Counted from the stretch's first letter, positions 18,128 through 22,418 are shown. The stretch: 64,000 nucleotides of DNA from an uncultured Actinomycetes bacterium (GCA_963751665.1 CAVVVF010000005.1:23924-87923); one strand, 5' to 3'. Notes: generated by a model not told the origin, from the sequence alone. Numbers and translations are program-made.

Positions 18128-18296
18128 CGTGCATCGATTCTATCGGAGCGGGGTATCCATCCAGCCAAGTGAGGGGTTTGAAAGGGGTCCGTCCGCGGGA
18201 GGGGAACACGCTGCGAGTCCACACTAGGGCGACCGGGCGACTGGAGCGCCGTGGGCGGCCCGGAGTAGACTCACCTACCCTTTGGGGGGAGGTCCC

Positions 18297-19175
18297 ATGA
18301 AGGTCAGGAAGGCCGTCATCCCCGCCGCCGGCCTGGGGACCCGTTTCCTCCCGGCCACCAAGGCACAGCCCAAGGAGATGCTCCCGGTGGTCGACAAGCC
18401 GGCCATCCAGTACGTGGTGGAAGAGGCCGTGCGGGCGGGGCTGAACGACATCCTGATCATCACCGGTCGGGGCAAGCGCTCCATCGAGGACCACTTCGAC
18501 CGGTCGGTCGAGCTGGAGAACTTCCTGGAGGCCAGAGGGAAGTTCGACGAGCTGAAGGAGGTCCGCGAGATCTCCGAGATGGCCACTATCCACTACATCC
18601 GCCAGCGCGATCCCCTCGGCCTGGGCCACGCAGTACTGGTGGCCGAGGACCACGTCGCCGGCGAGCCCTTCGCCGTCCTGCTCGGAGACGACCTGATCGC
18701 CGGGACCACGCCGCTCCTCCAGGAGATGCTGCGGATCCACGAGCGGTACGGCCGGAGCGTCATCGCGGTCCAGGAGGTGGCCCGGGACGAGATCGGCCTG
18801 TACGGCTCGATCGAGCCCGAGTTCGTCGAGGAGCGCCTGGCCCGCGTGGTCTCGATCGTGGAGAAGCCCGCCCCGGACGAGGCTCCTTCCAACCTGGCGG
18901 CGATCGGCCGCTACGTGCTGACGCCGGAGATCTTCGACAGCCTGCGCGCCGTGGAGCCCGGCAAGGGCGGCGAGATTCAGCTCACGGACGCCATCAACTA
19001 CCTGGCCCAGGAACAGGCCGTATACGCCTACGTCTTCGAGAACGGCCGGTTCGACGTGGGCAACAAGCTGGACTACCTGAAGGCCACGATCGAGCTCGCC
19101 GTGGATCGAGAGGACGTGGGCAGGGAAATCCGCGAGTACCTGGCGGACCTGGTGCAGCGCAAGAAGATCCTGTAA
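18297..19175 (+). CDS. galU: UTP-glucose-1-phosphate uridylyltransferase
   Basis: KAVIPAAGLGTRFLPATKAQPKEMLP, GLGHAV, VEKP, GEIQLTDA. Confidence 0.97.
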   Translation: MKVRKAVIPAAGLGTRFLPATKAQPKEMLPVVDKPAIQYVVEEAVRAGLNDILIITGRGKRSIEDHFDRSVELENFLEARGKFDELKEVREISEMATIHYIRQRDPLGLGHAVLVAEDHVAGEPFAVLLGDDLIAGTTPLLQEMLRIHERYGRSVIAVQEVARDEIGLYGSIEPEFVEERLARVVSIVEKPAPDEAPSNLAAIGRYVLTPEIFDSLRAVEPGKGGEIQLTDAINYLAQEQAVYAYVFENGRFDVGNKLDYLKATIELAVDREDVGREIREYLADLVQRKKIL

Positions 19176-19211: not shown

Positions 19212-20477
19212 ATGGCCACGAGCGCGACGCACGTCCACGACCACGACAGCGGTGAGGGCCTGCTCTCGGTGGAGGACGCCAGGCAGAAGGTCCTCGCGCA
19301 GGTCCAACCGCTCGCCACCATCAACCTCCCTCTCACCGAGGCTCACGGTTGCGTCTTGGCGGAGGACGCGGTGGCCCCCTCCGACCTCCCGGACTTCCCG
19401 TCCTCCGCGATGGACGGGTTCGCCGTCCGCTCGAGCGATGTGGCGGGAGCGTCGCCGGCATCGCCCGTCGAGCTCACGATCTCCGGGCGGGCCCCCATCG
19501 GTCGGCGTCCCGAAGCGACCGTTGGAGGCGAGGAGGCCGTCCGAATCGCCACCGGGGCGCCGGTCCCCGCGGGCGCAGACACGATCGTGCCCATCGAGAA
19601 CTGCGAGGCTGCCGGGGACCGGGTCCGGATACTGGCGGCATCGCCGGAGGGGAAGCACATCCGTCCCACGGGCGAGGACGTGAAGGCCGGCGAGATCCTC
19701 GTCGCTCGGGGGCGCCGGCTCGGCGCCCCCGAGCTGGCCCTCCTAGCCACGGCGGGCTTCTCGCACCCGCTGGTCCACCCCCGGCCACGTGTCGTGGTGC
19801 TCTCGACCGGGGACGAGCTGATCGCTCCGCCGGGCTCGCCTGCGTACGGTCAGGTCCGCGACTCGAACGCCTACCTGTTGTTCGGTGCCCTTCGGGAGGC
19901 GGGCGCCGCCCCGGTCCTGGCCGGCATCGTCCGCGACGAGGTGGACGAGCTCCGCGACACCGTGCTCTCGCGCCTGGCCCAGGCCGACGCGTTCGTGTCC
20001 TCGGGAGGCGTGTCGGTGGGGGAGCGAGACGTCGTGAAGGCGGCCTTCTTCCGCCGGGGTGACGTCGAGTTCTTCAAGGTGGCTATGCAGCCGGGCATGC
20101 CGCAGGGGTTCGGCCACATCGAGGGCAAGCCCTACTTCGGCCTCCCGGGGAACCCGGTCAGCGTCTTCGTCTCGTTCGAGGTGTTCATCCGGCCGGCGAT
20201 CCTGAAGATGATGGGCCGAACGAGCCTGTTCCGCCCTGAGGTCACCGCGCGCCTCACCGCCGACGTCTCGGGGCCGAAGGGCAAGACCCAGTTCGCGCGT
20301 GTGCTGGTGCGGCCGGACGACGACGGGTACGTCGCCACACCGACCGGAGGCCGGGGTTCCAACCTCATCTCCACCGTGGCCCGGGCGAACGGCCTGGCCA
20401 TCGTGCCCTCCGGCGTCGACACGGCGCCGGCGGGCAGCGAGGTCACGGTCATGCTGTTCCGCGCGCCGGAGGACTGA
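19212..20477 (+). CDS. moeA: Molybdopterin molybdotransferase MoeA
   Basis: SAMDGFA, IATGA, STGDEL, SGGVSVG, GLPGNP. Confidence 0.96.
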   Translation: MATSATHVHDHDSGEGLLSVEDARQKVLAQVQPLATINLPLTEAHGCVLAEDAVAPSDLPDFPSSAMDGFAVRSSDVAGASPASPVELTISGRAPIGRRPEATVGGEEAVRIATGAPVPAGADTIVPIENCEAAGDRVRILAASPEGKHIRPTGEDVKAGEILVARGRRLGAPELALLATAGFSHPLVHPRPRVVVLSTGDELIAPPGSPAYGQVRDSNAYLLFGALREAGAAPVLAGIVRDEVDELRDTVLSRLAQADAFVSSGGVSVGERDVVKAAFFRRGDVEFFKVAMQPGMPQGFGHIEGKPYFGLPGNPVSVFVSFEVFIRPAILKMMGRTSLFRPEVTARLTADVSGPKGKTQFARVLVRPDDDGYVATPTGGRGSNLISTVARANGLAIVPSGVDTAPAGSEVTVMLFRAPED

Positions 20478-20932
20478 TGGCGGCCGGCGACGCGGCGCGC
20501 ATCGTCGACGTCGGTAGCAAGGAGGTCACCGACCGAGAGGCCATGGCCGAGTGCGTGATCACGATGACCCCGGAGGCCTGCGCGCACCTCGAGGCGGGGA
20601 CGCCGAAGGGAAACCCTATCGAGGCCGCCCGGGTGGCGGGCATCATGGGTGTGAAGCGGACACCCGACCTCCTCCCGTTCTGCCACCCGATCGCGGTAAC
20701 TGGGGCCGAGGTCGTCGTGGAGCCCGATCGGTCGACCGGGCGCATCCGGGTCCAGGCGCGCGTGACCGCCCGCGACCGGACGGGCGTGGAGATGGAGGCC
20801 CTCACGGCGGCGGCGGTCGCCGCGCTCAGCCTGTACGACACGGCCAAGGCCTTCGACCGAGCCGCTCGCATCGACGGGCTCCGCCTGTTGGAGAAGAAGG
20901 GCGGGAAGAGCGGGGACTACCGGGCCGGCTGA
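20477..20932 (+). CDS. moaC: Cyclic pyranopterin monophosphate synthase MoaC
   Basis: VDVGSK, LLPFCHP, TGVEMEAL, KKGGKSG. Confidence 0.95.
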   Translation: MAAGDAARIVDVGSKEVTDREAMAECVITMTPEACAHLEAGTPKGNPIEAARVAGIMGVKRTPDLLPFCHPIAVTGAEVVVEPDRSTGRIRVQARVTARDRTGVEMEALTAAAVAALSLYDTAKAFDRAARIDGLRLLEKKGGKSGDYRAG

Positions 20933-20962: not shown

Positions 20963-20980
20963 AATCACACGTATGTGATT
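20963..20980. promoter_or_regulatory. Palindromic operator AATCACA-N4-TGTGATT abutting the -35 element
   Basis: Perfect 7-bp inverted repeat in an AT-enriched intergenic stretch. Confidence 0.55.
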
Positions 20981-21031
20981 GAGCACGCCACATGTGGGTG
21001 CTAGCGTCCGAACACAGACCACATGTTGTAC
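20979..21031 (+). promoter_or_regulatory. Sigma70-type promoter TTGAGC-N17-TAGCGT overlapped by tandem NrdR-like boxes (20985-21000 and 21016-21031)
   Basis: Both 16-mers keep C4, A6, A8, T9, T11 and G13 of the acaCwAtATaTwGtgt consensus and lie 31 bp apart. Confidence 0.65.
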
Positions 21032-21075
21032 ACGTGGTGGCGGGCCGGGGAAACCGCGAACGAAAGGCTGGGCGC

Positions 21076-21652
21076 GTGGGTTGGTTGACGCTTGCGGCCT
21101 TGGGCATAGTATGGGCCGCCTTCCTCCTCCCCAAGAGCCGCCGGAGCGGTTCGCTTGTGGAGAGCGTGGAGGACTTCGAACGGAAGATGGAGCTGTTGGC
21201 TGAGACAGGACGACACGAAGATGGGCGGTGGATCATCACCCCACGCAAGGGGACCCCGTTCCTCGGACCCGACGCCCGTTCCCAGCGCCAGGGCCCGGGA
21301 GCGACGGCGCCGGGTCTTCGTCTCCCTTCTCGAGAGCATCGGCCTCACGTTCCTGATCGGCCTGGTGCCGCCTCTTCGGCCCATGTGGGCCGTGACCGGC
21401 ATCCTGGTGGCGGCATTGGGCGCGTACGTGTGGTTGCTCCTGTGGATGAAGAAACAGGGTGCCGAGGCATCGGCGAGGCGAAGCGTGCAGGAGGCGAATG
21501 TGCCGGACCGCCCGAGGCCGGTCAGGCATCGCTATGTGTCGGAGGGCAAGCTGGCCAAGCCGGCGTACAGCGGGCTCGGCGTCTTCGACCACGACGACCT
21601 CACCAACATCGTGGTCCGGCCGGTCCGAAAGGTCGGCGTGGCCGGCGCCTAG
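21076..21652 (+). CDS. SepX/GlpR-like membrane protein, frameshifted near 21280
   Basis: N-terminal TM ending WAAFLLP, SVEDFERKMELL, RRRRVF followed by a TM hairpin. It occupies the moaC-tRNA-Ala position of actinobacterial sepX/glpR. GAAAGG SD. Confidence 0.68.
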
Positions 21653-21676: not shown

Positions 21677-22312
21677 ATGAACCTGGATCAGATCTCGGAC
21701 GACGTTCGCCTTCGCTTCGACCAGCGGATGGAGGCCCGTGAGCGCGCCCTCCCCGCCGCACGGCGCGCCATCCGGTCCTGCGCCAACGCGATCCGGGCCA
21801 TCCACCGCTCCGAGTGGGACAAGGCTCACATGCTCATGGACCAAGCGAAGGCGGCCATCGACGAGGGCCTGTCGGCCGTGCGCGATCATCCCGAGATCCG
21901 GTTCGCCGGGTACCTCCAGGACGCCCAGAAGGAGTACGCGGAGGCCCGCATCACCGAGGCAGTGGTGACCGCGGCCGGCCAGCTTCCCACTCCCGAGGAG
22001 CTGGGCGTGGAGGACGCGCCGTTCCTGAACGGGATGTCCGAGGCCATCGGGGAGGGTCGCCGCCACATCCTGGACCTGCTCCGCCATGGCGAGGTGGACC
22101 GGGGCGAGGCCATCCTCTCGGCGATGGACGACATCTACTACGTGCTGGTGTCGATGGACTATCCCGACGCCATCACGATGAACCTTCGGCGCTCCACCGA
22201 CGTGGCCCGGAGCCTGATCGAGAAGACCCGCGGCGACCTGTCGATCGCGATCGTCCAGCGGCAGCTCCGCGACGCGCTCGATCGCCACGCCAAGGATGTG
22301 CTTGGCAAGTAG
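21677..22312 (+). CDS. Translin/TRAX-family protein (putative ssRNA endonuclease)
   Basis: ARERAL..R, AIRAIHR, AQKEYAEA, LNGMSEAIGEGRR, LRRSTDVARSLIEKTR pattern typical of archaeal/bacterial translin-like proteins. Confidence 0.85.
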   Translation: MNLDQISDDVRLRFDQRMEARERALPAARRAIRSCANAIRAIHRSEWDKAHMLMDQAKAAIDEGLSAVRDHPEIRFAGYLQDAQKEYAEARITEAVVTAAGQLPTPEELGVEDAPFLNGMSEAIGEGRRHILDLLRHGEVDRGEAILSAMDDIYYVLVSMDYPDAITMNLRRSTDVARSLIEKTRGDLSIAIVQRQLRDALDRHAKDVLGK

Positions 22313-22344: not shown

Positions 22345-22418
22345 GGGGGTGTAGCTCAGACCGGTAGAGCACTGCCTTCGCACGGCAGGGGTCAGGGGTT
22401 CAAATCCCCTCACCTCCA
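22345..22418 (+). tRNA. tRNA-Ala(CGC), CCA end not encoded
   Basis: Acceptor stem GGGGGTG/CACCTCC with the G3:U70 pair, anticodon arm CTGCC-TTCGCAC-GGCAG, T-loop TTCAAAT. Confidence 0.97.

Follow-up and report, generated by a model that had tools for sequence, protein, structure and literature searches.

A putative tandem NrdR operator on the promoter of a SepX/GlpR-like gene in a class of uncultured Actinomycetota

The window analyzed here is a 64,000-nucleotide stretch of DNA from an uncultured Actinomycetes bacterium (GCA_963751665.1 CAVVVF010000005.1:23924-87923). A gene for a small SepX/GlpR-like membrane protein follows galU, a MoeA/Glp-type gene, and moaC in this window, and the region upstream of it carries two 16-mers that resemble the boxes bound by NrdR, a repressor mainly of ribonucleotide reductase (RNR) genes (Table 1). 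An earlier note on this DNA, made from the sequence alone, had read the 16-mers as tandem NrdR boxes and had proposed that nucleotide-pool status could directly gate a component of the division machinery. NrdR sites are described as two partially palindromic 16-bp boxes that lie 15 to 16 bp apart and share six highly conserved positions, C4 and G13, eight bases apart, being essential and A6 and T11 critical (PMC13584703). The two 16-mers of the window lie exactly where they had been reported, with a start-to-start distance of 31 bp. Their linker of 15 bp is inside the published range, and C4, A6, A8, T9, T11, and G13 are present in both of them (six of six core positions), as the note had stated. 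Near-identical strains from other runs keep all core positions, one of them with a 16-bp linker. As NrdR operators, the two 16-mers are strongly supported by the comparisons described below.

Both boxes overlap a putative promoter, which is predicted from its sequence. The −35 and −10 hexamers are separated by 17 nucleotides (nt) that are occupied by box 1, and box 2 starts 9 nt past the −10 hexamer, over the expected start site, which would be at about 21013 to 21016. The arrangement TTGAGC-N17-TAGCGT, with one box inside the spacer and the other just past the expected start site, had likewise been proposed from the sequence, and the promoter elements are kept in relatives: TTG recurs at the −35 position, and TAGCGT, TACCGT, or TAGCTT recurs at the −10 position. 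The boxes begin 53 bp past the moaC stop codon.

The earlier note had made its reading depend on the presence of an nrdR gene in the genome and on the scores of the boxes against a matrix built from nrd promoters. The assembly of the window's genome is 83% complete and offered 2,599,840 positions for scoring. One nrdR homologue was found in it, with the class II reductase gene nrdJ downstream, while the nrdB and nrdD families gave no match in this 83%-complete assembly. This genome's N-terminal NrdR sequence contains the four zinc-ribbon cysteines together with Asp15 and Arg17, which in Streptomyces coelicolor NrdR contact C4 and G13 (PMC13584703). Two boxes, 32 bp apart, lie upstream of nrdR, and tandem boxes are also present between nrdR and nrdJ. 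We collected the nrdR loci of 30 relatives and of this genome (29 of the 31 promoters were usable) and trained a position weight matrix on nrdR-promoter boxes only, taking the proximal box and, where present, a partner 30 to 33 bp upstream; this gave 36 unique 16-mers, with both boxes in 22 promoters. In these 22 promoters, the spacing is 31 bp in 17, 32 bp in 4, and 30 bp in 1, and the relatives' nrdR promoters share the layout TTGACG, box 1, TAGCGT, box 2.

Against this matrix, the boxes of the window score 16.7 bits each, and box 2 and box 1 rank 6th and 7th, respectively, among all positions of the assembly. When the assembly was scanned for pairs with a spacing of 20 to 45 bp and at least 6 bits per box, seven pairs had a sum of at least 20 bits and exactly three had a sum of at least 24 bits. 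These three are the pairs at the window promoter, at the nrdR promoter, and between nrdR and nrdJ, and the window pair is the best of them (Table 1). The fourth-best pair (C5:122156; 22.7 bits; spacing, 30 bp) has a first box that reads G in place of A6. Apart from these boxes, we observed three LexA-type boxes (TCGAAC-N4-GTTCG-like) at C1:203960-204050, about 300 to 400 bp 5′ of nrdR and before the short open reading frame (ORF) that precedes it; presumably, this is the usual lexA/nrdR neighborhood of Actinomycetota.

The boxes are conserved with the gene throughout the class, a group of uncultured soil actinobacteria. In GTDB, the class of this genome consists of one order with eight families, and its named records are all metagenome-assembled genomes (MAGs) of uncultured Actinomycetota. 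In a first sample, two boxes with at most one core mismatch and 30 to 33 bp apart were found at about −82 and −51 relative to the start codon in 29 of 30 loci. Upstream DNA was usable in 56 species genomes of the class, and in 52 of these a tandem pair that reaches 24 bits lies at about −80 and −50 of the orthologue (49 of 53 when three unpublished genomes among the 52, G003, G011, and G029, are left out), one has a pair of 20 to 24 bits, and three score below 20 bits. The footprint that the earlier note had called for, with both boxes and their spacing conserved upstream of the orthologue, is thus found in relatives. In a set of 80 named MAG loci (267,257 bases), which overlaps with the 56-genome set, a pair of at least 24 bits is present in 60 loci; if each box is also required to reach 6 bits, 59 of the 80 loci have the pair inside −130 to −40, and no pair occurs elsewhere in the 267,257 bases. 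In 103 of 110 loci from relatives, a box of at least 10 bits lies 40 to 70 bp ahead of the start codon. Among 83 unique box 2 sequences, the core differs in a single one, which has G at position 8; among 65 unique box 1 sequences, five of the six core positions are invariant, and C4 is kept in 63. Because the core is fixed while positions 5, 7, and 10 vary freely across the relatives' boxes, selection on the site is indicated rather than mere relatedness. The pair persists over eight families, in which the identity of the protein falls to 43 to 50%.

Outside the class, the association is old but patchy. The class profile matched 34 out-of-class loci; the pair reaches 24 bits in two of them (L232 of family f18 and L233 of family f40) and 20 to 24 bits in three (L231 and L193 of f18 and L229 of f66), so that three other deep actinobacterial families are represented. 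In a phylum sample of 201 genomes, the SepX_GlpR_2 model matched 29 loci, and the pair is present at only one of them, in a genome (G046) that itself belongs to the class; a genome of family f18 (G253) has a strong box 2. No boxes were found upstream of the six best SepX/GlpR matches of this phylum sample, four of which come from one family with genomes of 7.5 to 9.2 Mb and two from other families. By this comparison of sequences, the operator-gene association is not found in sampled relatives with a typical SepX/GlpR. Because 3 of the 56 class genomes and most of the outside homologues lack the pair, the association is lineage specific and has been lost several times.

TABLE 1 Features of the window, and sites elsewhere in the assembly of its genome (contigs C1, C3, and C4)
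Feature	Position	Strand	Remarks
galU	18282-19175		Upstream of MoeA/Glp-type gene
MoeA/Glp-type molybdotransferase-like gene	19212-20477	+	Glp_gephyrin and MoeA_actino matches
moaC	20477-20932	+	TIGR00581, 155.4 bits, above cutoff; ends 46 bp before −35 hexamer
Palindrome AATCACACGTATGTGATT	20963-20980		AATCACA-N4-TGTGATT; overlaps first two bases of −35 hexamer
Putative −35 hexamer TTGAGC	20979-20984	+	Read from sequence
NrdR box 1, ACGCCACATGTGGGTG	20985-21000	+	Fills promoter spacer
Putative −10 hexamer TAGCGT	21002-21007	+	TANNNT type
NrdR box 2, AGACCACATGTTGTAC	21016-21031	+	Spans expected transcription start
SepX/GlpR-like membrane protein gene	21076-21652	+	GTG start at 21076; frame shift at about 21285
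PRK14562-family gene ("HAD superfamily protein")	21677-22312	+	Begins 25 bp past stop of SepX/GlpR-like gene
tRNA gene	22345-22418		Rfam RF00005, 68.1 bits; 33 bp past PRK14562-family gene
nrdR	C1:204398-204831
nrdJ	C1:205474-207080		Class II reductase
Boxes upstream of nrdR	C1:204342, C1:204374
Tandem boxes between nrdR and nrdJ	C1:204875
Tandem pair, window promoter			Spacing 31 bp; 33.4 bits, best of three
Tandem pair, nrdR promoter			Spacing 32 bp; 33.3 bits
Tandem pair, between nrdR and nrdJ			Spacing 32 bp; 29.8 bits
Further palindrome sites	C1:204959, C1:193029, C4:30635, C1:488557, C1:277432, C1:559450, C4:544773, C4:551101, C3:142642, C3:142688

The gene behind the boxes has a GTG start codon that is supported by its relatives, whose homology begins at the same codon and whose single open frame encodes about 191 amino acids (aa). 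Compared with independent contigs of two DNA runs (X1 and X2), the window has one base too many at position 21285; relative to a contig of an RNA-library run (X15), the surplus base is at 21286. The frame break in the window is therefore an extra base, and thus an error, of this assembly. nrdJ is split over three frames in the same assembly, and frame breaks in this genome should not be taken as pseudogenes without a check of the reads. The protein consists of an N-terminal hydrophobic helix, a conserved soluble stretch with the consensus VEDFER.MELLA...GRWI.TPRKG, an arginine-rich run, two further helices, and a tail. Read by eye from an alignment (A1), the three hydrophobic helices lie at about residues 3 to 19, 80 to 100, and 104 to 124, which matches a GlpR-type topology of three transmembrane (TM) helices and two soluble regions. 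SepX acts with FtsZ in Streptomyces. GlpR of Corynebacterium glutamicum has three TM helices and two cytoplasmic disordered regions and binds Glp, and glp and glpR colocalize in Actinobacteria (PMC10522489).

The similarity to SepX/GlpR is remote. The NCBIfam model SepX_GlpR_2 is matched by 20 of 23 members of the family at an E value of ≤0.001 (best E value, 7.9e-9 at 35.8 bits), and none of the 23 reaches the curated cutoff of 150 bits. In NCBIfam, the divisome protein SepX/GlpR is represented by NF045516, NF050099, and NF050101. The identification of the ORF as SepX/GlpR-like that the earlier note had suggested therefore holds as a remote similarity, at 35.8 bits versus a cutoff of 150. The other matches are to two further SepX/GlpR models and, for two members, to SCO2097. 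Pfam gave nothing for the scanned member of this genus and only subthreshold matches for one other member; in public sources the family is labeled "hypothetical protein", and PF28211 is listed there for two homologues. In an hhalign comparison with five high-scoring SepX proteins, only the N-terminal 41 columns align (E value, 0.0014; probability, 17%). In four genomes of intermediate lineages (G225, G253, G168, and G302), one and the same gene is matched by both the class profile and SepX_GlpR_2, and homology to SepX/GlpR is thus supported by transitivity. The gene order moeA/glp-moaC-gene, often followed by a PRK14562-family gene, is kept in the class and in several other families and agrees with the published colocalization with glp. 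Regarding the SepX-like syntenic position noticed earlier, the location after moeA(glp) and moaC was found, but the high-scoring SepX genomes have moaC about 1.3 kb upstream and not adjacent. We thus classify the gene as SepX/GlpR-like on the strength of its position, its topology, and a remote similarity, an identity that is supported by these sequence features, and not as a member by the curated test.

The MoeA/Glp-type gene scores 435.6 bits against Glp_gephyrin (cutoff, 475) and 411.9 bits against MoeA_actino (cutoff, 560), and a single PF03453 match makes it the one MoeA homologue of the 83%-complete assembly. Glp-bearing bacteria reportedly carry at least two MoeA copies (PMC11733289), and because only one was found here, this neighbor may be a plain molybdenum cofactor (Moco) enzyme. 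The gene downstream of the SepX/GlpR-like gene matches PRK14562 with 257.7 bits, which is under the cutoff of 291, and has no Pfam family; its name, "HAD superfamily protein", looks doubtful. It adjoins the SepX/GlpR-like gene in most relatives, holds its place both in the class and in several other actinobacterial families, and is probably cotranscribed with the SepX/GlpR-like gene.

A second palindrome lies at the −35 hexamer of the same promoter. Its family motif is GAATYACA-N4-TGTRATTC, of which the window has an exact match, and it is kept upstream of box 1 in promoters throughout the class as well as in families f16 and f66 outside the class. In the assembly, AATYACA-N4-TGTRATT occurs 4, 4, and 8 times with 0, 1, and 2 mismatches, compared with 0.0006, 0.03, and 0.94 occurrences expected from composition. 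The palindrome is present between nrdR and nrdJ in all of 31 loci. At recA, 29 of 30 loci have it upstream (two of them from unpublished genomes), and in 23 of these it stands beside a LexA-type box. Palindrome sites of this genome have as identifiable neighbors the nrdJ leader, recA, dnaB, and a dnaE fragment; at four further sites, the adjacent ORFs have no match to any family and are probably wrong-frame or frameshifted ORFs. dnaA was considered as a neighbor of the paired palindromes at C3:142642, but it is not near. The two arms do not compensate for each other in their Y/R changes, which speaks for a protein site and against an RNA hairpin, and by its sequence and its neighbors it looks like a candidate operator of a regulator of DNA-synthesis and repair genes. 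It thereby points to a further regulator of recA, nrdJ, and the SepX/GlpR-like gene.

In the region upstream of recA (C1:193029-193090), a LexA-type box (TCGAACATACGTTCG), the palindrome, and TGTCAGAC-N8-TACTGT are stacked. TGTCAGA upstream of recA is conserved in most relatives. The third element, TGTCAGAC-N8-TACTGT, resembles the actinobacterial LexA-independent RecA-NDp promoter.

The sites themselves, their genome-wide rank, their conservation, and their placement on the promoter are observed. We infer that NrdR binds here and represses the gene and that the product has a role in septation, such that the status of the deoxynucleoside triphosphates (dNTPs) would gate division. In published work, NrdR oligomers that hold only ATP cannot bind DNA, whereas replacement of ATP by dATP in the outer site yields a tetramer that sits on both boxes and represses transcription (PMC13584703, PMC9110341); binding needs two boxes (PMC12051234). 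For both the switch by nucleotides and the two-box requirement, we thus rely on what is published for the S. coelicolor and Escherichia coli proteins. In the proposed mechanism, NrdR with dATP and ATP would form the DNA-binding tetramer and occupy both boxes, covering about −32 to +17 of the promoter. Transcription of the SepX/GlpR-like gene, and probably also of the gene 25 bp downstream, would be shut off, as would the nrdR and nrdJ promoters at the same time. With ATP alone, NrdR would leave the DNA, and the three units would be expressed together. The SepX/GlpR-like gene would hence be on with nrdR and nrdJ while dNTPs are consumed and off when they accumulate. Because the three units would switch together with NrdR, the NrdR regulon of this class is proposed to include the SepX/GlpR-like gene as a third, conserved member. 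From the sequence evidence, we regard it as quite probable that the two 16-mers form a true tandem operator for NrdR, through which NrdR with dATP and ATP represses this gene.

Several observations weigh against this interpretation. The core weights of the matrix are partly built in, because the training boxes were chosen by the core pattern. A generic sigma-70 consensus scan did not call TTGAGC/TAGCGT, its sole call being at 21085-21112 inside the ORF, so that the promoter assignment rests on conservation. The nrdR gene lies in two frames in this assembly, with the shift at about C1:204650, which we take to be an assembly error. The A+T content between C4 and G13 is 62.5% in box 2 but only 50% in box 1, under the 63% required in vitro by the NrdR proteins of S. 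coelicolor and of E. coli (PMC13584703); 11 of the 19 unique box 1 sequences of this lineage's nrdR promoters have the same 50%. The start-to-start spacing in relatives is mostly 30 bp (36 of 59 loci), one under the canonical 31 to 32 bp, with 31 bp in 12, 32 bp in 7, and 33 bp in 4 loci. The pair is lacking in three class genomes, one with box 2 only (G035) and two with no box (G052 and G103), and 29 of the 34 out-of-class loci score below 20 bits, so that most homologues outside the class are without it. The content of box 1 and the common 30-bp spacing, together with the fact that NrdR binding at these boxes is a prediction, would suit another regulator with a similar palindrome preference. 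We consider this very improbable, since the motif, the tandem arrangement, and the promoter placement are shared in this assembly with nrdR and nrdJ only, conservation falls on precisely the positions that stand out in the published NrdR logo, and just one NrdR homologue was found. Chance, or the mere kinship of the compared genomes, was also tested as the source of the match. Many of these genomes are close kin, and the counts are not independent; however, the ranks of the two boxes among 2.6 million positions, a pair that is one of three in the genome, the lack of any pair outside the −130 to −40 zone in 267 kb of sequence from relatives, and a pair that spans eight families with variable noncore positions lead us to reject this explanation. 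The operator might also serve mainly the downstream PRK14562-family gene, or block read-through from galU-moeA-moaC, with the SepX/GlpR-like gene as a passenger. The short distances to both neighboring genes fit this view, as does the adjacency of the downstream gene in most relatives. It is nevertheless improbable: in five genomes that are 92 to 100% complete, the boxes are kept before the SepX/GlpR-like gene at 32 to 37 bits although this query did not recover the downstream gene there, and in family f18, which has galU instead of moaC as the upstream neighbor, the boxes still occur in some members, with the promoter layout unchanged. For these reasons the boxes go with the SepX/GlpR-like gene, whose own conserved −35/−10 pair they overlap. 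NrdR repression of this gene is still, in our reading of the sequences, very likely.

What this repression would mean depends on the product. Coupling of dNTP status to division in the living cell is put forward as a hypothesis, and a full version of it, to which we give tentative credence at most, makes NrdR a replication-to-division checkpoint: a pileup of dNTPs after a halt in DNA synthesis would shut off a membrane anchor of the division machinery together with RNR, while the GAATYACA-N4-TGTRATTC operator of the second regulator would wire the gene into a DNA-synthesis and repair regulon, giving two independent switches. The operator could also be real and the product not a divisome protein but a small membrane protein with another role tied to DNA synthesis, e.g., as a membrane tether or as a partner in replication or in nucleotide metabolism; the regulation would then be uninformative about division. 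The best match of 35.8 bits against a cutoff of 150, passed by 0 of 23 members, and the 17% probability over 41 columns are in keeping with this, and so are the single MoeA beside moaC, which may be a plain Moco enzyme, and the fact that DNA-synthesis and repair genes share both operators of this promoter. Yet SepX/GlpR models are the only families matched, save for the two SCO2097 matches; the genes at the same locus in the four intermediate lineages match both profiles; and the three hydrophobic helices with two soluble regions, like the place after glp/moeA, agree with the published GlpR topology and glp-glpR colocalization (PMC10522489). We hold a product outside the divisome to be rather unlikely. 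If the product is a divisome anchor, as the repression model has it, septation would be coupled to the status of DNA precursors, by a direct route from nucleotide pools.

The layout closely resembles NrdR operators of RNR operons (nrdAB and nrdRJ of S. coelicolor; nrdAB, nrdHIEF, and nrdDG of E. coli), with two 16-bp boxes, six core positions, a 15-bp linker, and overlap with the RNA polymerase site and the start. It differs from them in its gene, which encodes a small divisome-related membrane protein and neither an RNR nor NrdR, and in a box 1 richer in G+C than the in vitro limit. A parallel on a non-RNR gene is topA of Pseudomonas aeruginosa, which has an NrdR box; there, however, the box is single and NrdR activates, while here a full tandem pair stands in a repressor position and is conserved throughout the class (PMC4409342). 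Like GlpR of C. glutamicum and SepX of Streptomyces, the product has three predicted TM helices, two soluble regions, and a MoeA/Glp-type neighbor, and its N-terminal helix and the following motif can be aligned with SepX. Unlike the high-scoring SepX proteins of 277 to 454 aa, it has 191 aa and scores far under the curated cutoffs, and unlike the six best SepX/GlpR matches of other families, it has tandem boxes upstream. In Streptomyces venezuelae, division and development are likewise tied to dNTP supply, as is proposed for this actinobacterial case, but there the division regulator WhiA represses nrdR, whereas here NrdR would act on a division-type gene, in the opposite direction (PMC3781837).

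Recent papers treat NrdR as an RNR-specific repressor, and the P. aeruginosa study describes the NrdR-regulated genes known before it as all being RNR genes, to which it adds topA (PMC4409342). This topA is the only tested non-RNR target that we found in the literature excerpts. The earlier note knew of no described coupling of dNTPs to division, and full-text searches of the literature yielded no paper with a link between NrdR and SepX or GlpR, although a listing may exist in Rodionov and Gelfand (2005), in RegPrecise tables, or in supplements. In papers that name NrdR, GlpR, and cell division together, GlpR is, to judge from titles and the openings of abstracts, the glycerol repressor or an entry in a list. 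If the reading is true, a tandem operator on a division-type gene that is kept across a class would widen the NrdR regulon. How bacteria couple replication to division has so far mostly been attributed to SOS-induced inhibitors and to nucleoid occlusion. Because heterologous NrdR proteins bind foreign boxes (PMC13584703), the claim can be tested in vitro despite the uncultured host.

The leader between box 2 and the start codon was also considered for RNA structure. RNAalifold on 16 relatives gave a consensus of −2.67 kcal/mol with a CCAGCCC/GGGCTGG pairing at the ribosome-binding site; this pairing is unsupported, because covariation is almost nil and the pairing is broken in this genus. No Rfam family was matched in the intergenic region, the tRNA gene listed in Table 1 being the only real match. 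Two RNA-library contigs (X15 and X16) cover parts of the stretch; since neither transcription nor its starts or strand can be read from contigs, we base no claim on these two. Right after box 2, many relatives have, as seen by eye, a short hairpin-like stretch (21032-21060 in the window) that was not recovered by RNAalifold. Its CCGGGG loop is conserved, while its stems vary by lineage (GCGG/CCGC, GCCG/CGGC, CGGA/TCCG, and GTCGA/TCGAC).

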